Assembly (NCBI GenBank): GCA_039794345.1
Contig: JBDIVQ010000004.1
Span: 126-64,125 of the forward strand
DNA from: Phycisphaerae bacterium
GTDB taxonomy: Bacteria > Planctomycetota > Phycisphaerae > Phycisphaerales > UBA5793
Direction of reading: 5' to 3'
DNA length: 64,000 nucleotides
Numbering within the stretch: the stretch's first letter is position 1; each line of letters begins with the position of its first letter. The position numbers were made by a program, and so were the translations under genes. The notes under the pieces are model-generated. The model had not been told where the DNA came from. It saw nothing but the letters and a program-made list of their open reading frames with translations, and ran no database searches. Below are positions 2,652 to 49,716 of the stretch, piece after piece.

Positions 2652-2687
2652 TGGTTTCACAGCCACCTCGATCACTGGAGTGGAGGA

Positions 2688-3686: not shown

Positions 3687-3695
3687 CCTTCTCGT

Positions 3696-14419: not shown

Positions 14420-14495
14420 ATTCGTGGCGGCGGGCAAGGCCTTGTCCTGATCGGCTCCATCCTCACCTTCCTCCGTTCGCCGCGCGCCGACTCGT

Positions 14496-14509
14496 CGAAC
14501 GCGCGTTCG
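14496..14509. promoter_or_regulatory. Perfect 14-bp palindrome, candidate TetR operator
   Basis: CGAACGCGCGTTCG lies between the putative promoter and the first operon gene, next to the divergent TetR gene. Confidence 0.35.
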
Positions 14510-14556
14510 GAAACCTGATCGTCCCGAAGCCATTCCCCTCGACACGGAGTTGAACC

Positions 14557-15726
14557 ATGAGCCAGTTCCCGACACGAGAGCCCGCATCCCTCGGCCTGCG
14601 CGAAGTGCAGTACTCCAAGGGCGACTGGATCGCCCGAATCTCAATCAACCGTCCCTTCAACTTCAACGCCTACAGCACCCCGGCGCTTCAGGAACTGGCG
14701 GCGGCCTTTGAAGACGCGAGCCGGGACGACCGCGTCGCCGTCGTGGTCTTCACCGGAGTCGGACATGACGCCTTCTGCACGGGCGGCGACGTCAAGGAGT
14801 ACCAGAAGTCCTACACGCAGCGCCCGCGCGACTACTGGAAGTACATGTCCTGCTTCAAGGCCTACATCGAATCGATCATGAACTGCTCCAAGCCGGTGAT
14901 TGCGCGGCTCAACGGCATGGCGGTCGGCGGCGGCAACGAGAGCCAACTCGCCTGCGACCTCGCCGTCATGGGCGAACACACCTTCGTGGCGCAAGTCGGA
15001 ACGAGCGTCGGTTCGGTCGCCTGCGGCGGCTCGACGCAGTGGCTCTCCGTCCACGCCGGCGATCGCCGCGCCCGCGGCATCCTCTTCCTCAACCAGCGCT
15101 ACCCCGCCTTCACCGCGCTCTCGCTCGGACTCGTCAACGCCGTCGTCCCGACGGTCAAAGGACCGGACGGACAGTTCGTCACCCGCTTCACGCAGGGCCG
15201 GGCTTTCCTCGCCGACTGGAACACCGACGCCTGGGAGAACCCCTTCGAACGCCGGGCGACCGCCGAAGACATCCGCAGGGCGCTCAAAGGAGCCGACGGC
15301 TACTCCATCGACCTGCGCCCGCTCGATGAGACGGTCAACAACCTCTGCGGCCAGATCATCAACAAGTTCGCCGAGTGCACGCGCTACACCAAGGCTCAGG
15401 TGAACTTCTGGAAGGACCTGGCCTGGCACGCAACCGCCGGGCACGCCCGCGACTGGCTCTCTATCCACTACACCAGCCTCGAGCCCTACGAGGGCATGAC
15501 CGCCTTCGTCGAGAAGCGCAAGGCGGACTACGTCGGCATGCGGGAGCGCGCCGCCGACCCCGACGGTTCGAGCGAGTTTCTCTGGGGCCCGTATGCCCTC
15601 GAGTGCCGCTCATGCGGCGCGAAGGGGCTTCCCGCGTTCTTTGACCACTGCGGCAAGTGCGGCGCCCCGCTGGAAGAGGCGCCGCCGAGCGGCGCCCCGG
15701 CGGAGCCGGCCGCGGCGAAGCGTTGA
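14557..15726 (+). CDS. MenB/BadI-subgroup crotonase, 6-oxocyclohex-1-ene-1-carbonyl-CoA hydrolase (Oah/BamA/BzdY)-like, with C-terminal zinc-ribbon-like knuckle
   Basis: 389 aa with DAFCTGGDVKEY, KPVIARLNGMAVGGGNE and AQVGTSVGSV. The length and the NFNAYSTP motif resemble the ~380-aa ring-opening hydrolases rather than the 260-aa MenB/BadI. The tail carries CRSCG-x11-CGKCG. Confidence 0.7.
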   Translation: MSQFPTREPASLGLREVQYSKGDWIARISINRPFNFNAYSTPALQELAAAFEDASRDDRVAVVVFTGVGHDAFCTGGDVKEYQKSYTQRPRDYWKYMSCFKAYIESIMNCSKPVIARLNGMAVGGGNESQLACDLAVMGEHTFVAQVGTSVGSVACGGSTQWLSVHAGDRRARGILFLNQRYPAFTALSLGLVNAVVPTVKGPDGQFVTRFTQGRAFLADWNTDAWENPFERRATAEDIRRALKGADGYSIDLRPLDETVNNLCGQIINKFAECTRYTKAQVNFWKDLAWHATAGHARDWLSIHYTSLEPYEGMTAFVEKRKADYVGMRERAADPDGSSEFLWGPYALECRSCGAKGLPAFFDHCGKCGAPLEEAPPSGAPAEPAAAKR

Positions 15727-15801
15727 CCGGTTCGAGGGCTTTGGGCGGCGGGGGCAGCGCGGCCTCCGGGAGTTCGTGGTGCAGCGCATCGGACGATTGA
15801 C

Positions 15802-16551
15802 ATGAACCAGGTGCGGCGAGCATTGGTGACCGGAGGGAGCAGCGGCATCGGCCGGTGCATCGCCGAGACCCTCGCCCGGCGCTGCGGCCGCGTCGGCATC
15901 CTCCACCTCGACTCGCCGGAGCAGGGACACGCGGTTGCGCGCGAGATCGAATCGCGCTCGGAGGGCGCGGCCGAGGCGTGGGCCCGGCGCTGCGACGTCG
16001 CCGACTCCGGCGCCGTCGCCGGCGCGTTCGCGGAGTTCCTCGAGCGTTTCGGCGGGCTGGAGATTCTCGTGAACGCCGCCGGCCTCTTCCGCGACACGGT
16101 CATCTGGAAGATGACCGACGCGCAGTGGCGCACCGTGATCGAGGTCAACCTGACGGGTGCGTTCAACTGCGCCCGCGCCGCGGCGCCGGCGCTGCGCGAC
16201 GGCGGGTGGGGCGCGATTGTCAACATCACGAGCATCAACGGCCTTCGGGGCAAGTTCGGGCAGTGCAACTACGCCGCGTCCAAAGCAGGGCTCATCGGGC
16301 TGACCAAGTCCCTGGCGCGCGAACTGGCCAGGTTCAACGTCACCGTCAACGCCGTCGCGCCGGGGATGATCGACACCCCGGCCACCGCAGCGCTCCCCGC
16401 CGATGTCCGCGAACGCTCCGTCGAGGAGATTCTCCTCGGCCGCATCGGCCGGCCGCAGGACGTCGCCGACCTCGTCGCCTTTCTCTGCTCCGACGAGGCT
16501 CGCTTCATCACCGGAGAAGTCATTCGAGTGGACGGAGGGCAGTACCTGTGA
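15802..16551 (+). CDS. Short-chain dehydrogenase/reductase (FabG/BadH-like 3-oxo/2-hydroxyacyl-CoA or -ACP oxidoreductase)
   Basis: 249 aa with VTGGSSGIGRCIA, NAAG and YAASKAG (YxxxK). Confidence 0.85.
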   Translation: MNQVRRALVTGGSSGIGRCIAETLARRCGRVGILHLDSPEQGHAVAREIESRSEGAAEAWARRCDVADSGAVAGAFAEFLERFGGLEILVNAAGLFRDTVIWKMTDAQWRTVIEVNLTGAFNCARAAAPALRDGGWGAIVNITSINGLRGKFGQCNYAASKAGLIGLTKSLARELARFNVTVNAVAPGMIDTPATAALPADVRERSVEEILLGRIGRPQDVADLVAFLCSDEARFITGEVIRVDGGQYL

Positions 16552-17345
16552 CACGCAACCCGAGACCGCAGACGGCGTCGAGCGGCGAGTTCATCCGGCT
16601 CGCCGAGGCCGAGGGAATCCTGACGATCACCCTCGATCGCCCGCCTCTCAACGTCCTCAACCTCGCGATGCTCGGCGAGATGGTCGGGGCGCTCCAGTCG
16701 GCCGTGGCCGACGAGTCGCTCGCCGCCATCGTCTTCCGGGCGGCGGGCAAGTCGTTCAGCGCGGGCGTGGACGTGGCGGACCACGCCGCCGACAAAGTGG
16801 ACGCGATGATCGAGACCTTTCATCGCGTGTTTCGTCTTCTCCTCTCGACCGATGCGCTGACCATCGCGGCCGTGCAGGGCGCGGCGCTGGGGGGCGCGTG
16901 CGAACTCGCCTGCTTCTGCGACGTGGTGCTCGCTTCGGAACGTGCGAAGTTCGGTCAGCCGGAGGTGAAGGTCGGCGTTTTTCCGCCCGTGGCGGCGACG
17001 ATCCTCCCTTGGCGCGTGGGCGTCGGCCGGGCGGTCGAGATCAACGCGCTCGGTGAGACGATCGGCGCGGCCGAGGCGCACCGCATCGGGCTGGCGTCGC
17101 GCCTCTTCGCGGCGGAGGAGTTCGAGGCGAAGGTCGGCGAGTACCTGGCCGCCGTCGGACGCCTTTCGCGGCCGGTCGTGCGGCTCGCCAAGCGAGCGAC
17201 GGTCGATCCCTTCCGCGCCGACCTGCTGGCGCACCTCGAACACGCCGAGCGAATCTACCTTGGCCAACTCATGAATCTCAGAGACGCGCACGAAGGCCTC
17301 TCGGCCTTTCTCGACCGGCGCGCGCCGGTCTGGGCGCACGCATAG
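16548..17345 (+). CDS. Enoyl-CoA hydratase, cyclohexa-1,5-dienecarbonyl-CoA hydratase (Dch/BzdW)-like
   Basis: GTG 16548 overlaps the SDR stop (GTGA). 265 aa. LTITLDRPPLNVLN, GKSFSAGVDVADH, AAVQGAALGGACELA and FGQPEVKVGVFPPVAA match my recollection of the dienoyl-CoA hydratase subgroup. Confidence 0.75.
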   Translation: MTRNPRPQTASSGEFIRLAEAEGILTITLDRPPLNVLNLAMLGEMVGALQSAVADESLAAIVFRAAGKSFSAGVDVADHAADKVDAMIETFHRVFRLLLSTDALTIAAVQGAALGGACELACFCDVVLASERAKFGQPEVKVGVFPPVAATILPWRVGVGRAVEINALGETIGAAEAHRIGLASRLFAAEEFEAKVGEYLAAVGRLSRPVVRLAKRATVDPFRADLLAHLEHAERIYLGQLMNLRDAHEGLSAFLDRRAPVWAHA

Positions 17346-17371
17346 CGGCAAAGCGCAGGATGGAGCAAGCC

Positions 17372-18394
17372 ATGAAAGCGGCAGTGTTTCACGGGCCGGA
17401 GCGCGGGATGGTCGTGGAGGAAGTGCCGGTCCCGACGGTCAAGCCGGGCGAAGCACTCATCAAAGTCGCGGCGTGCGGCGCATGCCACACCGACCTTCAC
17501 TACATCGAGCACGGCGTGCCGACCTTCAAAAAGCCGCCGATCATCCTCGGCCATGAGGCGTCGGGCGTGGTGGCGGAGATCGGCGTCGGCGTGATGAACG
17601 TCAGGCCGGGGCAGCGCGTGCTCATTCCCGCCGTGCTCACCTGCGGGCGGTGCGTCGCCTGCCGTCAGGGCCGCGAGAACATCTGCGCCGAGATGAAGAT
17701 GCTCGGCAACCACTTCGACGGCGCCTACGCGGAGTACGTCGCCGTCCCCGCTAAAGACCTGCTCGACCTGCCCGAGTCGATTCCCCTGGCGGAGGCGTCC
17801 ATCATCGCCGATGCGCTTTCGACGCCCTTCCATGCGGTGAAGAACCGCGCGCGGGTGCAGCCGGGCGATCGTGTCGTGGTCTTCGGCTGCGGCGGCGTGG
17901 GCATCAACGCCGTGCAGCTCGCCGCGCTCTGCGGCGCCCACGTCATCGCCGTGGATGTGAACGAGCGCAAACTGGAGTGGGCGAAGCAGTTCGGCGCCGC
18001 CGCCGTCATCAACGGCTCCAAGGTCGAGCGCGTCAGCAAAGAGGTGAAGAAACTCACCGACGGCGGGGCCGACATCGTCCTCGAAGTCATCGGCAATCCC
18101 AAGACGTTCGAAGAGGCGTTCGAGTGCGTGCGCGTCGGCGGGCGCCTCGTCGCGGTCGGCTATACCCACGAGGCGGCGGCGATCGTGCCCGGCAAGATCA
18201 TGTTCAAGGAACTCGAAGTCGTCGGCTCGCTCGGCTGCCGGCCCGTTGACTATCTGCCGCTCATCCGCCTTGTGGCGCAAGGCCGCATCGACCTCAAGAA
18301 GATCGTGACCCATCGCTTCCCGCTTGCCGAGATTCGCAGCGCGTTCGAGGTCATGCACGCGGGCGAATCTCTGCGATCCATCGTCGTTCCCTGA
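17372..18394 (+). CDS. Zn-dependent medium-chain alcohol dehydrogenase, 6-hydroxycyclohex-1-ene-1-carbonyl-CoA dehydrogenase (Had/BzdX)-like
   Basis: MKAAVFHGP start with GGAG 6 nt upstream; the ORF track starts 12 nt earlier. Catalytic Zn site CGACHTDLH and GHEASGVV. Structural Zn site CGRCVACRQGRENIC. Rossmann motif VFGCGGVG. Confidence 0.85.
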   Translation: MKAAVFHGPERGMVVEEVPVPTVKPGEALIKVAACGACHTDLHYIEHGVPTFKKPPIILGHEASGVVAEIGVGVMNVRPGQRVLIPAVLTCGRCVACRQGRENICAEMKMLGNHFDGAYAEYVAVPAKDLLDLPESIPLAEASIIADALSTPFHAVKNRARVQPGDRVVVFGCGGVGINAVQLAALCGAHVIAVDVNERKLEWAKQFGAAAVINGSKVERVSKEVKKLTDGGADIVLEVIGNPKTFEEAFECVRVGGRLVAVGYTHEAAAIVPGKIMFKELEVVGSLGCRPVDYLPLIRLVAQGRIDLKKIVTHRFPLAEIRSAFEVMHAGESLRSIVVP

Positions 18395-18406
18395 ACGGAG
18401 CCGGTC

Positions 18407-19648
18407 ATGGGCCAAGCCGCCGTCAAGCGAATCGAGATCGAGGCGACCGGGCGCCTGCGGGCGCTGATGCGCCGCTACTTTCTCGATCTCGACGAGGCGG
18501 CGAAGGATCCGGGCCGCAGGGTCGCGTGGTGCACTTCGGTGGGTCCGTGCGAGATCCTCGCAGCCTTCGGATTCGCGGTCTACTTCCCGGAGAACCACGG
18601 CGCGCTGCTCGGGGCGAAGAAGATCAGCCACGAGATGATCCCGCGCGCCGCCGGGCTCGGGTACTCGGCGGAGGCGTGCTCCTACATGAACAGCGACATC
18701 GGCTGCGACCTGCTCGGGTGCAGTCCGCTGCGGGAGTTGTACGGCGTTGACGGCCCGCCGCGGCCCGACCTGCTCGTCTACAGCACGAATCAGTGCCGCG
18801 ACGTGCAGGAGTGGTTCCACTACTTCGGGCATCGACACGAGGCGATGGTGGCGGGCCTTCAGCCGCCGCGCCATCTGAGTGAGGTCAAGGCCGAGCATGT
18901 CGCCGACGTGGTGGTCCAACTGGAGCGCCTCATCGAGCAGATCGAGATTCGCTTCGAACTGCGCCTCGACCGCCGCCGCCTGCGCGAGACGGTGGAGCGT
19001 TCGAGTCGTCTGAGCGTTCTCTGGGGCCGCGTGCTCGAGACGGCGCGGCGCCGGCCCAGCCCGCTGACTTTCTGGGACATGCTCATTCACATGGCGCCGG
19101 TGATCCTGATGCGCGGCTCGGAGGAGGCGATCGCCTACTACGAAGCGCTTCTCGCGGAGATGGAGGAGCGCCTCGTGTGCGGCACGGCGGCGGTGCCCGG
19201 GGAGCAGTGGCGCCTCTACTGGGAGGGAATGCCCGTCTGGCCGCGATTGCGCGAGTTGTCGGAGAAGTTCTTCGATCTGCGCGCCGCCGTCGTCGCCAGC
19301 ACCTACTGCAACTCCTGGGCGTTCGAGCCGTACGACGGCGGCGATCCGCTCGAGTGGATGGCGCGCACCAGCCTCGCGATCTTCATCAATCGCGACGAGG
19401 CGAGCAAGGAGCGCTTCCTGGAACGGACCTTCGCCCGCTTTGGCGTGGACGGCGCCATCTTCCACAACGCGCGCACCTGCCCGAACAACACCAACTCGCG
19501 CTACGGGATGCCCGAGCGCCTCCGCGCGCGGCTCAACCTGCCCGTTCTCGTGCTCGACGGCGACCTCTCCGACGTCCGCTTCTTCTCCACCGCCCAGTCG
19601 ATGACCAACATCGAGGCGTTCATCGAGCAGATGGAGGGGCGATCATGA
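18407..19648 (+). CDS. Single-subunit member of the 2-hydroxyacyl-CoA dehydratase / benzoyl-CoA reductase (BcrBC/HgdAB) family
   Basis: 413 aa. N-terminal VAWCTSVGPCEILAAFGFAVYFPENH is typical of the family. Nine Cys. No second catalytic subunit gene next to it. Confidence 0.8.
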   Translation: MGQAAVKRIEIEATGRLRALMRRYFLDLDEAAKDPGRRVAWCTSVGPCEILAAFGFAVYFPENHGALLGAKKISHEMIPRAAGLGYSAEACSYMNSDIGCDLLGCSPLRELYGVDGPPRPDLLVYSTNQCRDVQEWFHYFGHRHEAMVAGLQPPRHLSEVKAEHVADVVVQLERLIEQIEIRFELRLDRRRLRETVERSSRLSVLWGRVLETARRRPSPLTFWDMLIHMAPVILMRGSEEAIAYYEALLAEMEERLVCGTAAVPGEQWRLYWEGMPVWPRLRELSEKFFDLRAAVVASTYCNSWAFEPYDGGDPLEWMARTSLAIFINRDEASKERFLERTFARFGVDGAIFHNARTCPNNTNSRYGMPERLRARLNLPVLVLDGDLSDVRFFSTAQSMTNIEAFIEQMEGRS

Positions 19649-20595
19649 CCGGACGCGTGTTCGTCGGCGTTGATGCCGGCTCTTCGGCGACGAAGTGCGT
19701 GGTGCTCCGCTTCGGGCCCCCGGGCGAAGTCGTCGTGGGGCACGCCGTCACCCCCTCCGGCTTTGACTACGCCGAGGCGTCCGCCCGGGCGCTGCGCGAG
19801 GCGCTCGCGGCGGCGGGGGCGTCGGAGGGGGACATCGCCTCGGGCGTCGCCACCGGCTACGGCCGCGCGGGCGCGCGCCTCCCCGAGGGCGTGCCGCAGC
19901 GCCGCATCACCGAGATCACCTGCCATGCGCGCGGGGCGCGCGAGTGGTACCCCGCCGTCCGCCACGTCATTGACATCGGCGGGCAGGACACCAAGGTCAT
20001 CCGCCTGTGCGATCGCGGGCGCATGGCCGACTACCGCATGAACGCCAAGTGCGCCGCGGGAACGGGGACGTTTCTCGAATCGATCGCGGTGCGGCTCGGC
20101 CTGCCGCTCGCCGAGGTCGATGCCCTCGCGATGCAGTCCACGATGCGCCTCACGCTCAACAGTTACTGCACGGTCTTCACGAGCACGGAGGTGCTCGAGC
20201 GCATCAAGGCGGGCGACGCGAAGGAGGACATCGCGATGGGCATGTTCCGCGCGATCGCCTCGCGGGTGATTGAGATGCTCGCCTCCGGGGGCCGCGACGG
20301 GCCGGTGGCCGCGACGGGGGGCGTCGTCACCTACTGCCGCGCCATGCGCCGCGCGCTCGAAGAGGCGCTTGGGGTGCCGGTGCACCGCCCGCCCCTGCCC
20401 CAGCACGCGGGGGCCTGCGGCGCTGCGCTCCTCGCTGCGGAGGGCGCCGCTGACGGGTCAGCCATCGCGCTGCACGAAGCGCCCGAGGCGCACCGCGCCG
20501 ACCTGCCCGGGCAGTCGTGCTCGTGCGACGGTTCTCCTCGTCGCAACGGCCCGTCGTGCTCGGAAGCATCCTCGATGCGGGGGCGGCCATGCTGA
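19645..20595 (+). CDS. BadF/BadG/BcrA/BcrD/HgdC-type ATPase (electron-transfer activase)
   Basis: ATG 19645 overlaps the upstream stop (ATGA). VGVDAGSSATKCVV, DIGGQDTKVI, and cluster-bridging Cys contexts NAKCAAGTGTFLE and NSYCTVFTSTE. The ~45-aa C-terminal tail is low complexity and may not be real. Confidence 0.85.
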   Translation: MTGRVFVGVDAGSSATKCVVLRFGPPGEVVVGHAVTPSGFDYAEASARALREALAAAGASEGDIASGVATGYGRAGARLPEGVPQRRITEITCHARGAREWYPAVRHVIDIGGQDTKVIRLCDRGRMADYRMNAKCAAGTGTFLESIAVRLGLPLAEVDALAMQSTMRLTLNSYCTVFTSTEVLERIKAGDAKEDIAMGMFRAIASRVIEMLASGGRDGPVAATGGVVTYCRAMRRALEEALGVPVHRPPLPQHAGACGAALLAAEGAADGSAIALHEAPEAHRADLPGQSCSCDGSPRRNGPSCSEASSMRGRPC

Positions 20596-23500
20596 AGCAG
20601 GGGCACCTCGGCGTCTACCCGGCCGGCGCGCTCGGCGTCGCCATGTTCATGCACGCCCATGCCGAATGCCTCATCGGCCGGGCGGGCGGAGGCGTGACGG
20701 AAGATCTCCGCCGCGCGGGGTGTCTGCGGCTCGACGACGGCCAGGCGGTCCGCTCCGTTCCTCTTCGCGGCCGGATCTTCAGCAACCTCCTCGAAGCCGA
20801 CGCGCACGGCGCCGCCCCTGAACTGCTCGTTGTCTGCTGCAACCCCGGGCAACTCGCCGCGTCCACGGCCGAACTCACCCAGTTCGTGTCCAGCCACGCG
20901 CGCCGCGGCCACCTGCGCACCGTCGAGGACATCCGCCGGCGCACGCCGATCCTTCTGCTCCTGCCCAACGGCATCCTCGCGGAGGAGACGATCGAGACCT
21001 ACGGCCGCCAACTGAATGAGAGCCGCCTGCTCGACCGGTTGCCGGGCGTGACCGTGGAGATGATCGACGAACTTCTCTCCCGCGTGGTGCGCGGAGTGTC
21101 GATGCAGGCCGGCGGACGGCGCGGCGCAGGCTCTGAAACCATCTATCTCCTCGAGCGCTGCGGCCAGGTGCTCTTCGCGGGCGGATCGCGCCAGGCGCGC
21201 GAGCGCATCGTGGACATTCTCGCCTCCCACCAGTACCCCGGCCGCCACATCCCCGATGTGCCCGCGACGCGCATCGAGTTCGACAAGGCGATGATCTCGG
21301 CGGTCATCAACGTCGGCGGGCTCATTCACCTTGTCAAGCCCGACGGTGAACTCATCGACCTGCGCATGGGCGATCTCTGCCTCGATCCGACGCACCTCGA
21401 GTTCGTCGAGCGGATCACGCGCGCCGTCTTCGACGTCGGCCGCGCCATCGGCGCCTACGGCCCGGAGGACGCCTACGAGCGCGTCTGGGAGGGGCATCGT
21501 TCGATCATTCTCGCGCACGCCCGGCACGTGACCAGTTCGATCAAGACCTTCCGCGACGCGGCGGCGGCGGGCACGGCGGGGGTGGCGCTCATGACCAACG
21601 AGGAGTGGATCCTCACCCCCCTGCGCCGCTATGCCGTCCGCGCCGGCATGGAAGCGGAGGCGGAACTCTTCCGCTCGCTCGCGCAGCGCGTGCAGGAATC
21701 GATGGCGCGGGCCATCAGGCGGCGCCCCCGCGGCGCCGCCCCGCGTTCGTCCCGACACGGAGATCAGGCCATGAAACTCATCGCCCAGCGCACCATCACC
21801 ATGGAACTGCTCGAGGCCGGGCCGGACGATCTCGCCATCGTCGGCACGCTGCTCGACAGCGAACACCTCATCACCCTCGAACTGACCATCCACCTGCCCG
21901 ACGAGCAGATCACCGCCTCGCGCCTGGACATGATCCGCGTCCCCTACCACGTCTGCCGCGAGGTGGAGAGCGCGGCCGAGTCGCTGGTGGGCCTGCGCGT
22001 TCAGCGGGGGGTGATGAACGAGATCTCCAAGCGCGTGGGCGGCCGCGTGGGCTGCTCGCACCTGCGCGAGATTGCGACGGCGATTGTCTACTACGCCGCC
22101 ACGCACATGGCGAGGCGGCAGGTCGGCCTCGACCTCGCCGGTGGAGAGTCCATCCATCTTCCCGTCGAGGAGAAGTTCCGCCTCTCGCGCGCCCTGCTCA
22201 ACGGCACCTGCCTCGCCTACTGCCAGAGTTCGCCCCTCGAACTCGACAAGCACATGGGTATTCGGCGGATCGGACCGGTCCACGAGTCTCCCGTCCCGCT
22301 CGGCGAGTACGAACCGTCCCTCGGCGTCGTGCTGCGCGAGCGTGCCAAGGAGCACGGCGACAAGGTTCTCCTGCGGCATCGCCCGCGGCGCTTCGAGGCG
22401 CCGCGCGCGGGCGCGCCCGTCGAGTCGCTTTCCTATCACGACTTCGCCTCGACCATCTTCCGGATCGCGCGGCACCTCATCGCCTGCGACGTTCGCCCCG
22501 GAGACCGCATCGCCATGCTCTCGGAGAACCGCGCGGAGATGTTCATGTTCGAGGCGGCGGCGATGTCGATCGGGGCGGTCTCGGTGCCCGTCTACGCCGG
22601 CTATCCCTCCCCCCAGATCAGTTACATCCTCCGCCACTCGCGGCCGCGCATGGCCGTCGTCTCCGGAATGCACCAGCTGGAGAAGATCGACGCCGAGCGC
22701 CATCCCTGGGTGGAGCGGTGGTACTGCATGGACTTCGGCCCCGGACCGGAGCAGTGGGGCGCGCAGGACTTCGCCTCCCTGCTCACGCCCGAGGGCGGCG
22801 CGCTGGTGGAGGAACTCGAAGCGCGCATCGACGCCGTCCGCCCCGACGACCTCTGCATGGTCATGTACACCTCCGGCACCACCGGCCCGCCAAAGGGCGT
22901 TCGCCTGGCGCACCGCAACATCATCTCGCAGCAGAAGGCGATGACTCTCATCTGGGACGTCAGCGCCCGCGATGTCCTGCTGAGTTACCTCCCGTGGCAT
23001 CACAGTTTCGGCGGGCTTTTCGAGCGCTTCATGGCCCTCTACCAGGGCTGCGAACTCTGCCTCGACGATTCCGCCGGGCGCGACGTGGACCGGATGCTCG
23101 AGAACTGGCGGCACTTCCGGCCGACGCTCTTCTTCAGCGTGCCGCGCGTGCACGACCTCCTGCTGGCGCGGTGTCGGCAGGATGAGGCCGCCGGAAACCT
23201 CGTCTTCGGCGGGCGCCTGCGCTTCGTCTTCACCGCCGGCGCCTCGCTGCCGGCGCACGTGGCGCAGATCTACCGCGACCATCGAATCCCCGTGCTCGAG
23301 GGCTGGGGACTCACCGAAACCTCTCCCGCCTGCACCATCACCACGATCGACCGAGAGTGGCGCAGCGGGTATGTCGGCCTCCCGATCCCCGGAGTGAGCA
23401 TTCGCATCGACAGCGACCAGGAGATCCTCGTGCGCGGTCCCAACGTCATGCAGGGCTACCTCGATGACGAGGAGATGACCGCCCGCGTGATCGATGAGGA

Positions 23501-24071: not shown

Positions 24072-24074
24072 CTC

Positions 24075-27838: not shown

Positions 27839-29025
27839 ACGCCAGCTGGAGCCGGCCAGCCGCCGGTGCCGAAGAGGTCATACGCGAGTGCCGCACACTC
27901 GTCGAACTGCTGCCCTCGCAGGCCCTCGCCCGCGCGCGGCAGTCCCGGCCGGATCTGCGCGGCCTGGGCGTCTTTCCGGTCTATGCGCCGCAGGAGATCA
28001 TCCATGCGGCGGGGCTGATGCCCATCGGCCTCTTCGGCGCCGGCGCCAAACTGGAAACGACCCGCGCCGATTCGCGCTTCCAGTCCTTCATCTGCTCGAT
28101 CGCCCGGAGCACGCTCGAACTCTTTCTCAGCGGCGACCTGAGCCGGGAGAGCGGCTTCGAAGGGGCGGTGTTCAGTTCCATCTGCGACGTGGCGCGCAAC
28201 CTGTGCAGCGTCGCCGGACGCAACGCCCCGGGCGTGTACGTCGAGTACCTGCATCTCCCGCAGAACGCCGCCACGCCGGCGGCGCGCGAGTACACCCGGC
28301 GGGAGTTCGGACGGTTTCGCAGCAACCTTGCGCAGCACCTCGGCCGGGTCATCGACGAGGACGACATCCGGCGCAGTATCGTTCTCTACAACCGCGTTCG
28401 CGCCCTCATCGCCGACCTGTACGACCAGCGGCGCGAGCGCCCGGGTTCGATCCGGACGGCCGACCTTTTCGCCGTGGTCCTCGCGGCCACGTGCATGATG
28501 CCCGAGGACTTTGTTCCGAAGGCGGAGGATCTCCTGTGCAGTCTGCGCGAGGGGGCGCCGGTGGAGCGCGACTCGGTGAACGTGGTGCTCGAAGGCGCGT
28601 TCTGCGAGGCGCCGCCGATCGACCTCATCGACGCGATCGAATCGGCCGGCTGCCAGATCGTTGAGGACGACCTGGCGATCGGCTGGCGGATCTTCCGCGG
28701 CGAGGTGCCCGTGGAGGGCGATCCCGTCGCCGCTCTGGCGGACGCCTATCTCGCGAGCAGCGCCTACACGTCGGTGCGCCACGACAGCGCCCGGCCGCGA
28801 ACGCGGGGGCTTCTCGATCGCGTCGAGGCGTCGGGCGCCGACGCGGTGATCCTCGCCTCCGCGAAGTTCTGCGAGCCGGCGCTCTTCGACTACGTTCTCT
28901 TCCGCCGCGCGCTGGATGAGCGGGGCATTCCTCATCTCAAGATCGAGTTCGAGGAGAAGATGTGGACGTTCGAGCGGCTGCGCAACGAGATCGAGACGTT
29001 CACCGAATCGCTGCTGTTTGACTGA
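27835..29025 (+). CDS. Benzoyl-CoA reductase-type catalytic subunit, BzdN/BcrC/BadD-like
   Basis: ATG 27835 overlaps the upstream stop (ATGA). 396 aa with GVFPVYAPQEIIHAAGLMPIGLFG and FQSFICSIARSTLE. Confidence 0.8.
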   Translation: MNASWSRPAAGAEEVIRECRTLVELLPSQALARARQSRPDLRGLGVFPVYAPQEIIHAAGLMPIGLFGAGAKLETTRADSRFQSFICSIARSTLELFLSGDLSRESGFEGAVFSSICDVARNLCSVAGRNAPGVYVEYLHLPQNAATPAAREYTRREFGRFRSNLAQHLGRVIDEDDIRRSIVLYNRVRALIADLYDQRRERPGSIRTADLFAVVLAATCMMPEDFVPKAEDLLCSLREGAPVERDSVNVVLEGAFCEAPPIDLIDAIESAGCQIVEDDLAIGWRIFRGEVPVEGDPVAALADAYLASSAYTSVRHDSARPRTRGLLDRVEASGADAVILASAKFCEPALFDYVLFRRALDERGIPHLKIEFEEKMWTFERLRNEIETFTESLLFD

Positions 29026-29071
29026 ATCGTGAAGTCGTCCGGCCCTGCGCCGGCGCGCGAAGGAGCTCGAG

Positions 29072-30412
29072 ATGCCGACCGCCGCCCCCCAGCCTGCACC
29101 CGCCGCCAACGACTACGGGAGCGTCGTGCACGATCTCTCGCGCGAGGTGATGACGGAGTGGATGACGCAGTTGCAGGACGCCGCCCGCACGGGAGCGCCC
29201 TCGGCCTACATGATGGTCAGCGGCAACTGCGTCGAGATTCTCCGCTGCTTTGACATCCTCCCCGTCTTCCCCGAGATCAACGCGCTGCAACTGGCGATCC
29301 GCAAGAAGGCTCTGCCCTACATCCTCAAGGCTGAGGAGATCGGCTACGCGTCCGACAACTGCGCCTACGTCAAGGCCGACATCGGCTACACGCTTTCGGA
29401 AGGGGTGGGGGAGCACGGCTCGACGCCCAAACCATCGCTCATCGTCTGCAACTTCGTCGGGTGCAACGTCTACATCAAGTGGTTCGAGCACTGCGCCGAG
29501 ATGCTTGACGTGCCGCTGGTGATGATTGACGTTCCTTTCGTCCGCCAGGGCGAGGCGGTCTCGACGGGCGATCTGCACTACGTCATGGCTCAGTTGCGCG
29601 GCCTCATCACCGCGTGCGAGGAACTCACCGGCGTGAAGTTCGACATCGACCGCCTGCGCGAGATCGTCGGCCATTCCGCCCGGGCCGAAGCCGGCTGGAG
29701 CCGCGCCAAGGAACTGTGCAAGAGCCGCCCCGCGCCCTTCGACTGCTACTTCGACTCGATCAACATGATGGGCCCCATCAACGCCCTGCGGGGGACGAAG
29801 CAGGCCGCCGACTTCTTCGACGCCGCCGTCGCCCACTACGAGATGATGGCGTCCCGCGGGCTGGGCGCGACCGACGAGGAGCAGTTTCGCGTCGTCTTCG
29901 AGGGACCGCCGCCATATCCCTACTACCGCAACTTCCGCAACCTCTTCGCGGCGTGGAAGGCGGTCTGCGTGCAGAGCACCTACTCGACCGTCGGCGGCAC
30001 GTGGGAGTTCGGCTTCCGGCACGATCCCGACCGCCCTCTCGAGTCGATCGCAGAGCAGATGCTGCTGCACAACCTCTGCAACCGCACGATGCAGGAGCGC
30101 TACCGGCAGATCCGCCGCTACGTCGAGGAATGGGAGGCGGATGCGCTGGTGATCCACAGCGTCAAGTCCTGCCGGCTGTTTTCCGCCGGGCAGGGAGACA
30201 TGCGCGAGTACTTCACGAAGGAACTCGGCGTGCCGACGCTCATGGTCGAGTCCGACCTCGAGGATCCGCGCTACTACGCCGAGGCCCAGATGAAGAACCG
30301 CATCGACGCGTTCTTCGAGTCGCTCCAGTACAAGCGTCTTCGCGGTTCGGCCGCGGAGGCCGGGCCCGTTCTGAAGGAGGGAGTCAGCGATGCACTACGC
30401 CGCGGGCATTGA
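29072..30412 (+). CDS. Benzoyl-CoA reductase-type catalytic subunit, BzdO/BcrB/BadE-like
   Basis: 446 aa with AAGGAG 7 nt upstream of the [45 protein letters not shown] and [11 protein letters not shown]. Confidence 0.8.
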
Positions 30413-31238
30413 CATCGGCAGCACGCAGACCAAGGCGGTCCTCATGGACGCGGCGCGCGCCATCGTGGCGCGGACCGTCATCCCGACGGGAGCGCACGTC
30501 GTCCGCGCCGGGCGGCGGGCCCTCGAGGCCATCGTCGCCGAAGCCTCGATACAGGCGGAAGACGTCCGCTGCGTCATCGGAACGGGCTACGGCCGTTACA
30601 AGGTCGAGGCCGGCGATGCGCAGGTCACGGAAATCTCCTGCCACGCGCGCGGCGCGCAGTTCATCTTCCCCGGCACCCGGACCGTGATCGACATGGGCGG
30701 ACAGGACACCAAGGCCATCAGGACCGGACCCGAGGGGAACGTCGTCGATTTCTGCATGAATGACAAGTGCGCCGCCGGCACGGGGCGCTTCCTCGCCGCC
30801 GCCGCCGATGTCGTCGGCCTGAGCCTGGAGGAGATCGGCGAAGTATCTCTCCGCGGCACGAAACCCATCCGCCTCACCAGCGTCTGCACCGTCTTCGTCG
30901 AGTCCGACATCATGAACTACCTGGCGCAGCGCAAGGCGGTCGAGGACATCCTCGCCGGAGTTCACCAGGCGATCGCCTCGCGCACCATCGGCCTCGTGCG
31001 GCGCGTCGGCGTCGAGGAGGAAGTGACGTTTACCGGCGGCGTCGCCCGCAACATCGGCATGGTCCGGGCGCTGGAGGACAAACTGGGAACGAAACTCAAC
31101 GTCGGCCCGGAGTCGCACTTCATGGGCGCGCTCGGCGCCGCTCTGTTCGCCGTCGATCGACTCCTCGCGGCCCAGCCGCAGGAGGTCGGGCGCATGGACG
31201 CCACTCCGGTGTGGTCCGACGGACTCGAAGGACGCTGA
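30390..31238 (+). CDS. Benzoyl-CoA reductase-type ATPase subunit (BzdP/BcrD/BadG-like)
   Basis: 282 aa with [35 protein letters not shown] and [11 protein letters not shown]. Overlaps the upstream gene by 23 nt. Confidence 0.85.
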
Positions 31239-31279
31239 CGCCCCGCGAATCTCGCGGACGCTCGGAAAGGAACCCTGGA

Positions 31280-32134
31280 ATGACCTGCATCGCCGGAATC
31301 GACATCGGGGGAGGATCGACCAAGGTCGTTCTCATTGACGCCCAGCGCCGCATCCTCGGCCGCGGACTGGCGCGGAGCAACGCTGACTTTGAGGGCGTCG
31401 CGGGCCGGGCGCTGGCGCAGGCGTGCGAGCAGGCCGGAATCGACGCCGAGCAGGTCGAGTACGTCGCCGCCACCGGCCTGGGCCGGTACAGCCTGGAGAG
31501 TCGCAACATCCAGATCACCGATCTCACCTGCGGTGCGCGCGGCGCGGCCGCGCTCGTGCCTCACGCCCAGTACGTGCTCGACATGGGCTCGCAGTGCACC
31601 CGCGCCATTTCCCTGCGCCCCGGCGGCAAGGTCAAGGCCTTCCGCACCAACGAGAAGTGCGCCGCCGGCTCGGGTGGGTTCCTCGAACGCATTGCGCGCT
31701 ATCTCGAGATATCCCTCGAGGACGTCGGCCGCCTCTCCCTCGAGGCGGACGACCCGCAGCCCATCAGCAGCGTCTGCGCCGTTCTCGCCGAGTCGGAGAT
31801 TATCAACCACGTTTCGGAAGGTCGCAGCATCCCCAACATCCTTCGCGGTGCCCATGAATCGCTCGCGGGGCGAACGGTCTCGCAACTCAAGATGGTCGGG
31901 TACGGTGCAGACGGCGCCGGCGCGGAAGAGGTCGTCGTCTTCATCGGCGGCGTGGCGCTTCAGCGCGGCATGGTGGCCGCGTGCGAGCAGCGTCTCGGCC
32001 AGGCGCTCGTCGTGCCCGAGCATCCCGCTCATGTGGCGGCGTACGGGGCGGCCCTGCTCGGCCTGCAACGCCATCTCAAACGCCGCGAAACCACCCACGC
32101 CGGCGCCGATCAGCCCGCGGGAAGGCAGTCCTGA
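31280..32134 (+). CDS. Benzoyl-CoA reductase-type ATPase subunit (BzdQ/BcrA/BadF-like)
   Basis: ATG 31280. 284 aa with GIDIGGGSTKVVL, DMGSQCTRAI, NEKCAAGSGGFLE and SSVCAVLAESE. Confidence 0.85.
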   Translation: MTCIAGIDIGGGSTKVVLIDAQRRILGRGLARSNADFEGVAGRALAQACEQAGIDAEQVEYVAATGLGRYSLESRNIQITDLTCGARGAAALVPHAQYVLDMGSQCTRAISLRPGGKVKAFRTNEKCAAGSGGFLERIARYLEISLEDVGRLSLEADDPQPISSVCAVLAESEIINHVSEGRSIPNILRGAHESLAGRTVSQLKMVGYGADGAGAEEVVVFIGGVALQRGMVAACEQRLGQALVVPEHPAHVAAYGAALLGLQRHLKRRETTHAGADQPAGRQS

Positions 32135-32138
32135 GCCG

Positions 32139-32723
32139 ATGAACCATCCAACGCACGCCCTTCGCGCCGAACATCAGGTCATTCTCAAGGTGCTCGACTG
32201 CTTCGAGATCGCGCTGCGCCGCAGCGCCGCCGCCCACGCGCTGGCTGAGGCGGAGTACCTCCCCTTCATCAAGTTCTTCCGCGAGTTCGCCGACCGATGC
32301 CATCACTGCAAGGAGGAGGATCGCCTCTTTCCGTGTCTGGAGCGCTGCGGCCTGCCGCGCGAGCACGGTCCGATCGCGGTCATGCTCCACGAACACGAAC
32401 TCGGCCGCGCCCATGTTCGCGCCATCGCGGAGTCGCTTTCCGCCGCCGCCGCCGGCGATGCGGCCGCACTCCAGCGCGTTCTGCGCGAAGGTCTTGAGTT
32501 CATTCACCTCCTCCGCAACCACATCTACAAAGAGAACGAAGTGCTCTTCCAGATGGCCGATCAGATGATCGGCGACGCCGAACGGGCCGGCCTGACCGAC
32601 GCGTACGAAGCGGCCGACGGGCAGCGGGAGATCCGCCTCGCGCTTGGGCAGGGAAGATCGATCGCCGCCGATCTCTGCGCGCGTTACGGCATCGCCCCTC
32701 CTGCGGAGCAACCGAAGACGTGA
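32139..32723 (+). CDS. Hemerythrin-like (HHE cation-binding) di-iron protein
   Basis: ATG 32139, 4 nt after the upstream stop. 194 aa. His/Glu ligand pattern: LRAEHQVI, CHHCKEEDRLF, MLHEHELGR and LRNHIYKENEVLF. Confidence 0.75.
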   Translation: MNHPTHALRAEHQVILKVLDCFEIALRRSAAAHALAEAEYLPFIKFFREFADRCHHCKEEDRLFPCLERCGLPREHGPIAVMLHEHELGRAHVRAIAESLSAAAAGDAAALQRVLREGLEFIHLLRNHIYKENEVLFQMADQMIGDAERAGLTDAYEAADGQREIRLALGQGRSIAADLCARYGIAPPAEQPKT

Positions 32724-34309
32724 GCGGGCCGAACGCCGAACTTCTGCGCCGCATCGCGGCTCTGCTCCGGGATGGAACAGCCGCGGCGCTGTGCCTCGTC
32801 GTGGATGAGCGCGGATCGACTCCGCAAGGCGCCGGCGCGGTGATGTTCGTCGATGATCTCGGCCGCATTCACGGCACCATCGGCGGCGGCTGCGTCGAAG
32901 CGGAAGTCCGGCGACTGGCGATGCCCCTGATCGCCCCGCGCCGGTCTGCGATCTTCCGCTTTCGACTCGACGGCGACTACGGCTGGGACGACGGGCTGAT
33001 CTGCGGCGGTGCGATCGAAGTCGCCATCGCCCCGGCCCCTCCTGCCGAGGCGCTCGAGCGGCTTGCCGACGAGGTCGAGCGGAGTCAACCGGCGCTGCTT
33101 GAAATCGAGGTGGGCAGCGACGCTCGGCGCGAGCACATCGTGCTCCACCTCCCCCCGCGACTGCGACTGCTGATCGCCGGCGCGGGCCACATCGGCCGGG
33201 CGGTGGCGCGACTGGCCGCCGCGCTGGACTTTGACGTGACGGTCTTCGACGATCGGCCTGATCTTCTCGGCGCTCTCGCGCCGTCGGTGGGTGTTGCGTG
33301 CGGCCCGATCGCCCTTCGCCTCGCCGACACGCCGATGTCCCGGCACACCTTCTGCGTCATCGTGACGCGCGGCCATCGCCACGACGCCCAGGCGCTCGCC
33401 GCCGTCCTCGACCGCCGCACGACAGGCGAACTGCCCGGCTACGTCGGGATGATCGGCAGCCGCCGCAAGGTCGCGCTCACGTTTGAGGAACTCGAGGAGC
33501 GCGGCATTCCGCGGGACCGGCTCGATCTCGTTCGCGCGCCCATCGGCCTGCCCATCGGCGCCGAGACGGTCGAAGAGATCGCGGTGTCCATTGCGGCGCA
33601 ACTCGTCGAGGCGCGCGCGGCGCTGCGCGGCGGACGCAGGTCGCACGGCCGCAAACTCATCGAGCGCCGCCTCCTCCCGCCGCACGCCGGGCACGACGCC
33701 CGACCGATCGGCGTCCTCCTTGCCGCCGGCCGGAGTCGGCGCATGGGATGCACGAAGCAGACGCTGCCCCTGCCCGGGGACTCAGAAGGCCGCGCACTCG
33801 TCGCCGCCGCCTGCGATGCCGTCGCCTCCGCCTGCCGCGAGATGATCGTCGTCGTTTCCCACGACGCCGACGCCGTGGCCGGCTCCCTCGGCGAGCGGCG
33901 CTGTCGCACAGTCAGGGTGGGCGAGGGGGAGGACATGAGCCAATCCGTCTTCGCCGGTCTGCGCGAGGCGCACCGCATCGATCCCGCAGCCCCCGTGCTG
34001 CTTCACCTTGCCGATCATCCGCGCGTCAGCCCCGCATCGCTCGAATCGATCTGCCGGGCCGGCGCGGACCATCCGCATTGCGCCATCATTCCCGTCTTTC
34101 AGGGTCGCGGCGGTCATCCGGTTCTCATTCCCCCGGTGCTGATCCCCGCCATACTTGATGGCGAGGCCGCGCGGCGACCCGGCGGATTGCGCGAGTTCTG
34201 GGCGGCTCACCCCGATTGCTGCCTGCGGCTTCCCGTGGAGGACGCCTCGATTCTCGTCGATGTTGACTGCCCCGGCGACTACCGGGGCCTGTTGCAAGGA
34301 GTGACGTGA
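32720..34309 (+). CDS. XdhC/CoxI-family molybdenum-cofactor insertion chaperone fused to a MocA/MobA-like nucleotidyltransferase
   Basis: GTG 32720 overlaps the hemerythrin stop (GTGA). XdhC N-domain: VVDERGSTPQGAGAVMFV and GTIGGGCVE. Rossmann: LLIAGAGHIGRAV. C-terminal IGVLLAAGRSRRMGCTKQTLPL is typical of Moco cytidylyl/guanylyltransferases. Confidence 0.8.
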   Translation: MSGPNAELLRRIAALLRDGTAAALCLVVDERGSTPQGAGAVMFVDDLGRIHGTIGGGCVEAEVRRLAMPLIAPRRSAIFRFRLDGDYGWDDGLICGGAIEVAIAPAPPAEALERLADEVERSQPALLEIEVGSDARREHIVLHLPPRLRLLIAGAGHIGRAVARLAAALDFDVTVFDDRPDLLGALAPSVGVACGPIALRLADTPMSRHTFCVIVTRGHRHDAQALAAVLDRRTTGELPGYVGMIGSRRKVALTFEELEERGIPRDRLDLVRAPIGLPIGAETVEEIAVSIAAQLVEARAALRGGRRSHGRKLIERRLLPPHAGHDARPIGVLLAAGRSRRMGCTKQTLPLPGDSEGRALVAAACDAVASACREMIVVVSHDADAVAGSLGERRCRTVRVGEGEDMSQSVFAGLREAHRIDPAAPVLLHLADHPRVSPASLESICRAGADHPHCAIIPVFQGRGGHPVLIPPVLIPAILDGEAARRPGGLREFWAAHPDCCLRLPVEDASILVDVDCPGDYRGLLQGVT

Positions 34310-34785
34310 TGTCCGCTTCCGACGCCCATGCCGTGGAGGCTCGTTCCTTCAGCGGCGAGGAGACATTCGCCGCCTCCGCCGAGCGTACCTTTGCCGCGCT
34401 GACGAACCCCGATGTCCTGGCGCGCTGCATACCCGATCTTGTTGCGGCCGAGCGCGTGGACGATCGCACGCTTCGCTGCAGCGTAAAGCCGGGATTCTCG
34501 TTCATCCGGGCCACGCTGAAGATGACGATCACCTTCAGCGAAGTGGATGAGTCGCGGCGCTTCGCCGCCCTTGACATCGCCAGCAAGGGCATCGGGGCTT
34601 CCATGACGGTGCGCTGCGCGATGACGGTGGAGGAGCACGGCGGCGGGAGTCGTGTGAAGTGGGAGGCGAGCATCCTGCAACTCGGCGGCCTCATCGCCGC
34701 CGTCGGCCCCGCCCTCATTCGCGGGGCGGCGGACAAGGTCATCCGCGAGGGCTGGGCCGCCCTGCGCCGCGAGGTCGAGTCCTGA
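34306..34785 (+). CDS. CoxG-like SRPBCC protein (carbon monoxide dehydrogenase subunit G family)
   Basis: 159 aa; start overlaps the upstream stop. FAASAERTFAALTNPDVLARCIPDL and GGLIAAVGPALIRGAADKVIREGW match the CoxG fold pattern as I recall it. Confidence 0.7.
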   Translation: MMSASDAHAVEARSFSGEETFAASAERTFAALTNPDVLARCIPDLVAAERVDDRTLRCSVKPGFSFIRATLKMTITFSEVDESRRFAALDIASKGIGASMTVRCAMTVEEHGGGSRVKWEASILQLGGLIAAVGPALIRGAADKVIREGWAALRREVES

Positions 34786-49677: not shown

Positions 49678-49716
49678 CAGAAAAGCAGACCGGATCGGCG
49701 CGGGGCCGATCCGGTC
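49678..49716 (-). terminator. Rho-independent terminator after pseudopilin-like gene 49780..50718
   Basis: 12-bp perfect stem GACCGGATCGGC / GCCGATCCGGTC (49688..49716) with a 5-nt loop, followed on the minus strand by UGCUUUUCUG. Confidence 0.7.

Follow-up and report, generated by a model that had tools for sequence, protein, structure and literature searches.

A gene cluster at positions 9667-36000 of a 64,000-nucleotide stretch of Phycisphaerae DNA (assembly GCA_039794345.1, contig JBDIVQ010000004.1, positions 126 to 64,125; the whole stretch is called the window here) probably constitutes one TetR-controlled regulon for the oxygen-independent degradation of aromatic acids via aryl-CoA thioesters, situated in the core chromosome of its Phycisphaerales host. 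Judging from the sequence and its relatives, we give this reading a probability of about 0.6. At its center are four of sixteen consecutive plus-strand genes (G1-G16), namely G10-G13, which profile, motif and tree comparisons show to be a homologue of the four-subunit, ATP-coupled class I aryl-CoA reductases of the Bcr/Mbd type. Because all curated cut-offs for benzoyl-CoA reductase (BCR) and for the lower-pathway enzymes Oah, Had and Dch are missed, this homologue is described as a distinct sister clade. An original prediction, made from the sequence alone, had interpreted G1-G16 as a complete benzoyl-CoA-type pathway in an apparently PVC-type (Planctomycetes-Verrucomicrobia-Chlamydiae) genome. 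The aromatic-acid interpretation is upheld in part: the reductase class, the host and the type of ligase stand, while the curated cut-offs, the completeness and the gene order do not.

The four-subunit reductase

The core of the cluster (27835-32134) consists of two genes of the Pfam family HGD-D followed by two different ATPase genes of the Pfam family BcrAD_BadFG. The first gene, G10 (27835-29025, plus strand, 396 aa), encodes a BcrC/MbdN-like gamma subunit that scores 260 bits on TIGR02263 (cut-off 421), and G11 (29072-30412, plus strand, 446 aa) encodes a BcrB/MbdO-like beta, or substrate-binding, subunit that scores 306 bits on TIGR02260 (cut-off 487). They are followed on the same strand by G12 (30390-31238, 282 aa), a short form of the BcrA-like ATPase subunit with 194 bits on TIGR02259 (cut-off 578), and by G13 (31280-32134, 284 aa), a BcrD-like ATPase subunit with 178 bits on TIGR02261 (cut-off 313). 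The best specific NCBIfam model for each of the four is the cognate one, BcrC, BcrB, BcrA and BcrD respectively, so the gene order is C-B-A-D as in Thauera bcrCBAD and not bzdNOPQ as originally predicted. Assignment to the Bzd type was considered and rejected, as the Bzd models score far lower (BzdN 92 and BzdO 109 bits), the ATPase genes run A then D, and G10 lacks the 'CxGxRYF' cysteine of BzdN and DCCP. For G12 the bzdQ model reaches 177 bits, and the match to the BcrA model is confined to profile positions 215-432.

The meaning of these scores can be calibrated with the solved 3-methylbenzoyl-CoA reductase (PDB 9g87, chains rebuilt from HMMER alignments). On the same models the true MbdO scores 221 bits (TIGR02260) and the true MbdN 230 bits (TIGR02263), both below the cut-offs, so that this enzyme lies farther from the models of canonical BcrB and BcrC than G11 and G10 do. 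When G11 and G10 are compared with chains in the PDB, MbdO/MbdN give 286/255 bits, HadB/HadC 144/160 bits and BzdO/BzdN 101/82 bits. Additionally, G10 has a 'GxFCExPP' cysteine in common with MbdN that is absent from BzdN, DCCP and HadC.

Diverse relatives were collected by searching 1.8 billion cluster representatives, and two of these relatives pass TIGR02260: P0249 (815 bits, 38% identity to G11) and P0247 (630 bits, 42%). In a neighbor-joining (NJ) tree (simple distances, 79 sequences, 408 columns, 100 bootstraps), G11, canonical BcrB and MbdO are set apart from HadB and from G5, a second HGD-D protein of the operon, in 100/100 bootstraps. The clade of the window, which includes homologues from Rokubacteria and Acidobacteria, is monophyletic in 92/100 bootstraps; 68/100 place it as the sister of canonical BcrB and 32/100 group it with MbdO. 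A phylogeny of this kind had been proposed as a check on the prediction, and it puts G11 outside the 2-hydroxyacyl-CoA dehydratases (HADs).

Residues expected at the active site point in the same direction. Cys97, Cys131, Cys367 and Glu68 of G11 align with Cys95, Cys128, Cys380 and Glu65 of BzdO, of which the three cysteines are [4Fe-4S] ligands and the glutamate is catalytic (PMC11971306). At position 134 G11 carries Tyr; the corresponding residue is Phe in MbdO and His131 in BzdO. The motifs CxYVK, VKSC and PE(I/V)NALQ are common to G11, BcrB and MbdO; their counterparts in HADs, Bzd-type proteins and G5 are CxY(A/M)R, NR(S/G)C and PEN(Q/H). In the Rokubacteria homologue Roku_gw (P0117) an Arg occupies the column of G11 residue 131 (GRNVY, not GCNVY), and this Arg at the second cluster-ligand position may stem from an error in sequencing or mean that the cluster is ligated differently.

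A divergent unit with a regulator and a molybdenum enzyme

The cluster does not start at 14557 as first described, since a conserved divergent unit (9667-14348) also belongs to it. This unit begins with a TetR-family, FadR-like regulator of 293 aa (13467-14348, minus strand; Pfam TetR_N and TetR_C_24, with a weak NCBIfam FadR match), followed on the same strand by the FAD-binding medium subunit of a xanthine-dehydrogenase-family molybdenum enzyme (12608-13480; Pfam FAD_binding_5 and CO_deh_flav_C) and by a fused [2Fe-2S] (gamma-like) and molybdopterin (alpha-like) subunit (9667-12615) resembling 4-hydroxybenzoyl-CoA reductase (here 4-HBCR). The regulator and the molybdenum-enzyme genes are kept directly upstream of the Oah-like gene in three further genomes (L084, L085 and L086). 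Between the regulator gene and G1 lies an operator-like perfect 14-nt palindrome, TCGAACGCGCGTTCG (14494-14510), and a near-identical TCGAACG(N1-2)CGTTCG motif is found between the TetR and Oah-like genes in all four genomes, that is the window, L084, L085 and L086. The palindrome is likely to be an operator, presumably bound by the TetR protein.

The fused subunit has two [2Fe-2S] domains, and its molybdopterin part scores 892 bits on TIGR03194 (4-HBCR alpha, cut-off 995), with the next model, XdhA, 315 bits lower at 577. Its best PDB match is 1rm6_A with 530 bits, followed by 1t3q_B with 325 bits. The separately encoded FAD subunit has CutM/CoxM as its best PDB match (152 bits), with HcrB (1rm6_B) at 67 bits, and it scores 103 bits on TIGR03195 against a cut-off of 405. 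Its alignment skips the approximately 41 residues that form the [4Fe-4S] loop of HcrB, and no cysteine cluster is present. These comparisons show the predicted product of the divergent unit to be a molybdenum enzyme closest to 4-HBCR that lacks the [4Fe-4S] loop for ferredoxin entry. The loop of 4-HBCR is thought to feed in low-potential electrons; as the FAD subunit is CoxM/CutM-like and loop-less, the electron donor is unlikely to be the same as that of 4-HBCR. A ferredoxin-independent dehydroxylase is plausible because Ucdh, a phenol dehydroxylase belonging to the XO (xanthine oxidase) family, is run on NADH with the aid of XdhC (PMC12771579). The same source gives molybdopterin cytosine dinucleotide (MCD) as the cofactor of 4-HBCR (PMC12771579).

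The molybdenum enzyme, which the original prediction missed, also accounts for genes at the far end of the operon. G15 (32720-34309, plus strand), identified by profile matches, is a fusion of XdhC with a MocA-like (MobA-like, cytidylyltransferase) domain and a putative MCD maturation factor, and G16 (34306-34785, plus strand) is a CoxG/SRPBCC protein (Pfam COXG 72 bits). Both are shown by homology to be predicted maturation or accessory factors for this type of molybdenum enzyme, and their presence at the operon end is explained by the enzyme encoded in the divergent unit. They are preceded by G14 (32139-32723, plus strand), a hemerythrin/RIC-like di-iron protein (Pfam Hemerythrin 67 bits, weak YtfE/RIC matches), a homologue of which immediately follows the ATPase genes of the reductase in Phycisphaerae and is found close by in some Methylomirabilota and Verrucomicrobiia loci (L001-L006, L053, L058 and L071). 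G14 may serve in oxygen sensing or in Fe-S repair for an oxygen-labile enzyme.

Downstream of the molybdenum-enzyme genes, two genes occupy the stretch 7401-9670 (minus strand). The first, for a diheme c-type cytochrome (CQVCH, CGACH), overlaps the molybdenum-enzyme stop codon by 4 nt, and it is followed by that for a divergent membrane protein resembling subunit I of heme-copper oxidases (COX1 88 bits, ccoN 31 bits). Such a pair would suggest a private electron route from the molybdenum enzyme to a terminal oxidase or NO-reductase-like protein. A dedicated respiratory link with an oxidative molybdenum enzyme was rejected, as the cytochrome and oxidase-like genes are not beside the enzyme in L084-L086, and for the same reason they are left outside the system.

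Lower-pathway genes and the middle module

The first four genes of the operon resemble enzymes that act after ring reduction. G1 (14557-15726, plus strand) is an Oah-like ring-opening crotonase of the MenB/BadI class in its long form, with TIGR03200 (dearomat_oah) as its best match over the full length; its C-terminus carries a CxxC-x13-CxxC zinc ribbon that is seen in 119/120 homologues, and its Phycisphaerae homologues are 75-94% identical. G2 (15802-16551, plus strand) is, from profile matches, a FabG-like dehydrogenase of the short-chain dehydrogenase/reductase (SDR) family. G3 (16548-17345, plus strand) is a crotonase resembling Dch, an enoyl/dienoyl-CoA hydratase (ECH_1 162 bits), for which the Dch model TIGR03189 is second best. 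G4 (17372-18394, plus strand, start taken from the public gene call) is a Had-like Zn-dependent alcohol dehydrogenase with TIGR03201 (dearomat_had) as its best match. The specific models proposed as a check on this trio are all missed (203 bits against a cut-off of 464 for G1, 249 against 339 for G4, and 140 against 293 for G3). Membership aside, the resemblance of the three predicted enzymes to Oah, Had and Dch is consistent.

A second group of genes, G5-G9, lies between this set and the reductase. G5 (18407-19648, plus strand, HGD-D) is a lone HadB-like subunit, of the substrate-binding type, from the 2-hydroxyacyl-CoA-dehydratase family. The HadB model gives 188 bits for G5 versus 126 for BcrB, and in the PDB HadB gives 158 versus 83 for MbdO; it has the motifs FPENHGA, CSYM and RTC, keeps the three cluster cysteines and is placed by the NJ tree in the HAD radiation. 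G6 (19645-20595, plus strand), which overlaps G5 by an ATGA, is an activase-type ATPase for G5 that scores 204 bits on TIGR00241 (CoA_E_activ), over the cut-off of 125. G7 (20589-24071, plus strand, 1160 aa) joins a domain with the ketopantoate-reductase fold to DUF2889 and a FadD-type acyl-CoA synthetase. Pfam recognizes DUF2889 and AMP-binding in G7, and its first 424 residues have no Pfam match even at E<=10. For residues 1-380 an AlphaFold model (30-sequence alignment) has a predicted local distance difference test (pLDDT) score of approximately 88, and a Foldseek search with this N-terminal model finds ketopantoate reductases (PanE/ApbA) and D-mandelate dehydrogenase at E = 2e-11 with a template-modeling (TM) score, normalized to the target, of approximately 0.74. 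A Lys/Asn motif, EFDKAMISAVINVGG (K233, N241), which corresponds to the catalytic Lys motif of such reductases, is near-invariant. According to this model, the N-terminus of G7 is a predicted 2-oxoacid-reductase-fold domain. The synthetase part is of the long-chain/FadD type, as had been noted originally.

The module ends with G8 (24075-25361, plus strand), a thiolase with 329 bits on TIGR01930, over its cut-off, and G9 (25358-27838, plus strand), a 3-hydroxyacyl-CoA dehydrogenase whose C-terminal part matches the crotonase family weakly (3HCDH_N 103 bits, ECH_1 31 bits). The set G5-G9 suggests a feeder route for aryl-C3 acids that would involve one round of side-chain beta-oxidation.

Organization and genomic setting

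The window is uniformly GC-rich (0.63-0.72) and consequently holds many spurious open reading frames (ORFs). Coding frames were picked by third-position GC, and starts were chosen from translations with candidate start codons. This yields sixteen intact plus-strand ORFs between 14557 and 34785 with a coding-type third-position GC of 0.80-0.90. The consecutive junctions from G1 through G9 are +75, -4 (GTGA), +26 or +14, +12, -4 (ATGA), -7, +3 and -4 (ATGA) nt, and those from G9 through G16 are -4 (ATGA), +46, -23, +41, +4, -4 (GTGA), and -4 or -1 nt. A 36-nt gap separates G16 from a convergent acyl-CoA dehydrogenase gene (34822-about 36000, minus strand; Acyl-CoA_dh N, M and C domains) whose start is uncertain, the longest ORF extending to 36327. 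The best specific models for this dehydrogenase are acryloyl-CoA reductase and glutaryl-CoA dehydrogenase, and it is syntenic in L002-L005 with 77-96% identity. The boundaries from the TetR gene to the thiolase gene agree with an independent public gene call on 3 contigs that carry an identical Oah-like protein. The re-called ORFs thus confirm the predicted run of sixteen genes with overlaps or gaps of at most 75 nt and a convergent acyl-CoA dehydrogenase after it, and every entry in the earlier list of their domains is matched by Pfam and NCBIfam.

The remainder of the window is of a housekeeping character and includes dcw genes, thrS, accA, lspA and genes for N-methyl-motif proteins. As the GC content is even across the window, the cluster is no obvious island. 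A promoter/terminator scan gave nothing meaningful. Two paralogous proteins of approximately 310 aa with prepilin-type N-terminal methylation motifs are encoded at 48367-50718 on the minus strand; such pairs are typical of Planctomycetota/Verrucomicrobiota genomes.

Host and distribution

The closest genomes are Phycisphaerales metagenome-assembled genomes (MAGs), in which G11 is 95% and 88% identical, and the Phycisphaerales belong to the PVC group, in agreement with the host that had been proposed. Among the 80 loci listed, approximately 36 are labeled Planctomycetota/Phycisphaerae (70-95% identity), approximately 28 are labeled Methylomirabilota/Rokubacteria/NC10 (63-70% identity), and a few are from Acidobacteriota, Binatia or Verrucomicrobiia. 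The G5-G13 block is syntenic in approximately 30 Phycisphaerae loci. For Phycisphaerae, Planctomycetes or Rokubacteria, a literature search turned up no publication dealing with the cluster. An oilfield survey already lists BcrB/BcrC matches from Planctomycetota, and the cluster is kept across Phycisphaerae; the host context is thus less exotic than the original prediction held.

Several loci deserve individual mention. One contig (L001, WYBR01000108.1) labeled 'Vicinamibacteraceae bacterium isolate PLA1' has a G11 that is 95% identical and is fully syntenic with a Phycisphaerales contig (L002), so its taxonomic label or its binning looks wrong. On a 2.9-Mb Planctomycetota contig (L085), genes for the electron transfer flavoprotein (ETF) EtfAB and for an oxidoreductase with Fe-S/CCG domains (1159-5050) flank the cluster, a combination of the type that anaerobes use as a membrane electron sink for acyl-CoA oxidation. 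In a locus from a Methylomirabilota MAG (L056, 8093-20740), approximately 4 kb separate the BcrCB-like from the BcrAD-like genes, a spacing that returns in some 15 loci of Rokubacteria/Methylomirabilota and in a single Verrucomicrobiia locus (examples are L049, L052, L053, L058, L062, L063, L066, L068, L069, L071-L074, L076 and L078). In L056, the only one of these that is annotated, the gap holds genes for a divergent molybdenum-bis(pyranopterin guanine dinucleotide) oxidoreductase of approximately 900 aa, for a dicluster protein (4Fe-4S) and for a membrane anchor of the NrfD/DmsC type. A TetR gene stands upstream, and downstream are genes for a ligase of the PaaK type, a crotonase and an SDR. 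As judged by its gene content, in this locus a different molybdenum enzyme family is apparently wired to the same reductase clade.

Proposed pathway and alternative readings

If the cluster is indeed a regulon for aromatic-acid degradation, an aryl-C3 acid such as cinnamate, coumarate, or an aryl-pyruvate or aryl-lactate derived from Phe/Tyr would be activated with CoA by the synthetase domain of G7. Where needed, the ketopantoate-reductase-fold domain of G7 would reduce a 2-oxo acid and the radical dehydratase-type pair G5/G6 would dehydrate a 2-hydroxyacyl-CoA. One round of side-chain beta-oxidation by G9 and G8 would yield (4-hydroxy)benzoyl-CoA and acetyl-CoA, and the molybdenum enzyme would remove the para-hydroxyl group, perhaps with NAD(P)H at the FAD site. 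The ring would then be reduced by G10-G13 at the expense of ATP, and the G3 hydratase, the G4 or G2 dehydrogenase and the G1 ring-opening hydrolase would lead to a C7 dicarboxyl-CoA for further processing by G8, G9 and the convergent acyl-CoA dehydrogenase. G14 could act as an oxygen sensor, or in the protection or repair of oxygen-labile Fe-S clusters.

A number of observations weigh against this reading. All four BCR equivalog cut-offs are missed by G10-G13, as are those for Oah, Had and Dch by G1, G4 and G3 and those for 4-HBCR (TIGR03194, TIGR03195) by the molybdenum enzyme, whose FAD subunit lacks the [4Fe-4S] loop. Identity to characterized enzymes is only approximately 38-42%, the tree is an NJ tree on simple distances whose PDB sequences are fragmentary and were reassembled from HMMER alignments, and every relative among the listed loci is a MAG. 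A six-frame search of the whole window found no ORF with the ferredoxin motif CxxCxxCxxxCP, which makes "complete" too strong a word for the pathway; a ferredoxin gene is a usual, not a strict, feature beside a class I BCR. No gene of the benzoate-CoA-ligase type was found. Within the middle module, no gene for a beta-type partner stands beside the alpha-like G5 and its activase G6, and the GxGxxG motif of the reductase-fold domain of G7 is replaced by PAGALG. G5 and G6 are absent from L086, which keeps G7, and entry from aryl-lactate is thus not universal.

An alternative reading concerns the substrate. The reductase may be of the Bcr type and act on something other than benzoyl-CoA, namely the CoA ester of a substituted or partly reduced ring, for example a hydroxylated, methylated, alicyclic or bicyclic one, with the Oah-, Had- and Dch-like enzymes acting on the matching analogues. 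Class I enzymes specialized for methyl-, isopropyl- and tetrahydronaphthoyl-CoA are known, the window clade is separate from canonical BcrB and MbdO (92/100 bootstraps), the downstream enzymes are all equally diverged from the equivalogs, G1 has a clade-specific zinc ribbon, and the ligase differs from the benzoate type. We nevertheless think this unlikely, though far from negligible, as G11 and G10 outscore the 3-methylbenzoyl-CoA enzyme on the two models (BcrB and BcrC), benzoyl-CoA itself is the product of the enzyme to which the co-conserved molybdenum enzyme comes closest, and the cluster-ligand and glutamate positions are unchanged in G11. It is improbable that the cluster is instead anabolic or fermentative, a core Phycisphaerae trait in which a benzoyl-CoA pathway runs toward ring formation or supplies alicyclic or aromatic building blocks. 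Its place in the core chromosome beside dcw, thrS and accA, its uniform GC, and its conserved gene order with 60-95% identity across many Phycisphaerae would suit such a role, but an ATP-hydrolyzing reductase pushes toward ring reduction and not ring formation. Further, the FadR-like TetR repressor with its conserved operator-like palindrome is typical of catabolic acyl-CoA regulons, the acyl-CoA synthetase, thiolase, hydroxyacyl-CoA dehydrogenase and acyl-CoA dehydrogenase are a catabolic set, and an ETF with an Fe-S oxidoreductase lies beside the cluster in L085.

The remaining alternative is that no ring is reduced at all and that G10-G13 are a HAD with two activator paralogues used in amino-acid fermentation. 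The Pfam family HGD-D, the NCBI name '2-hydroxyacyl-CoA dehydratase family protein' given to relatives, the HadB and HadC models as second best for the two HGD-D subunits of the core (179 and 182 bits), and the presence of a true HAD-type subunit, G5, in the same operon all lend themselves to this view. As an identity for G10-G13 it is rejected on account of the NJ tree, which leaves HadB and G5 outside the clade of G11 in every bootstrap, and of the Bcr-type motifs in place of the CxYAR, NRSC and PENQ of HADs. Two different ATPase genes in the C-B-A-D order and the co-conserved Oah-, Had- and 4-HBCR-like neighbors speak against it as well, and we regard it as very improbable. In short, the cognate models, MbdO and MbdN as best solved relatives and the tree all support the original view of the core as a class I aryl-CoA reductase homologue and not a dehydratase, although its four subunits fail the curated models that had been suggested for checking them.

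Significance

To our knowledge, ATP-dependent ring reduction has been characterized biochemically almost solely in facultatively anaerobic Proteobacteria. With the cluster, a separate, well-conserved branch of class I aryl-CoA reductase homologues comes to light in Phycisphaerae, and its relatives occur in Methylomirabilota/Rokubacteria, Acidobacteriota and Binatia. Sediments, soils and groundwater commonly harbor these groups, from which we know of no cultured aromatic degraders. Should the enzyme be active, marker-gene surveys that depend on curated cut-offs for BCR or bamA would underestimate the anaerobic degradation of aromatics. The cluster would then also offer candidates for new enzymology in a 4-HBCR relative without a [4Fe-4S] loop, a tri-domain reductase-DUF2889-ligase, a lone HadB-like subunit and a zinc-ribbon Oah.

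A broader proposal is put forward tentatively, as a possibility that we would not yet bet on. Uncultured Phycisphaerae may have a deep-branching class I aryl-CoA reductase in common with Rokubacteria/Methylomirabilota, in which the accompanying gene set differs; in Phycisphaerae the reductase would be tied to an undescribed feeder. In this feeder the tri-domain enzyme would reduce and CoA-activate aryl-pyruvate or aryl-lactate derived from Phe/Tyr, a single-subunit radical dehydratase and beta-oxidation would lead to 4-hydroxybenzoyl-CoA, and a ferredoxin-independent 4-HBCR variant would precede dearomatization. If true, abundant lineages of sediments and groundwater would be an overlooked anoxic sink for aromatic carbon.

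Comparison with known systems

The reductase core shares with Thauera aromatica BcrCBAD and Rhodopseudomonas palustris BadDEFG the C-B-A-D order and the combination of two HGD-D with two different ATPase subunits. It is further likened to the Bcr type by its cognate best models, its place as a sister clade and the conservation of the cluster-ligand cysteines and the glutamate. It differs in that G12 is without the N-terminal half of the BcrA model, all cut-offs are missed at approximately 38-42% identity, the window is without a ferredoxin gene, and the host is from the Phycisphaerales and not the Proteobacteria. MbdONQP (PDB 9g87) is the best solved relative of G11 and G10, has the gamma-subunit 'GxFCExPP' cysteine in common with the window and is also under the BcrB/BcrC cut-offs; however, it forms a separate clade and MbdO has Phe where the window has Tyr134.

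The molybdenum enzyme resembles HcrABC (PDB 1rm6), by far the closest match of its alpha part, in having two [2Fe-2S] domains and a FAD subunit, and MCD-type maturation genes are present in the window. Unlike HcrABC, its gamma and alpha parts are fused in one polypeptide, its FAD subunit is CoxM/CutM-like and loop-less, and it is under the curated cut-offs. A precedent for a loop-less enzyme is given by Ucdh, described as a reductive phenol dehydroxylase of the XO family that uses NADH instead of ferredoxin and is aided by XdhC (PMC12771579), although its substrate is a free polyphenol and not a CoA ester.

The middle module recalls the HadBC-HadI and FldBC-FldI systems, as G5 is HadB-like with an FPEN motif, G6 is an activase and a 2-oxoacid-reductase-fold domain is found next door in G7. 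In contrast to these systems, the window has an alpha-type subunit only, with no HadC-type partner, activation would be by an AMP-forming synthetase in place of a CoA-transferase, and the reductase, with its PanE/ApbA fold, forms one protein with DUF2889 and a ligase. Finally, the same three enzyme classes as in Dch/Had/Oah (BamR/BamQ/BamA) are adjacent in the window, with Oah and Had as best specific models and the Oah match at full length, yet the scores are about half of the cut-offs, Dch is second best only, and the window adds an extra SDR and the zinc ribbon of G1.

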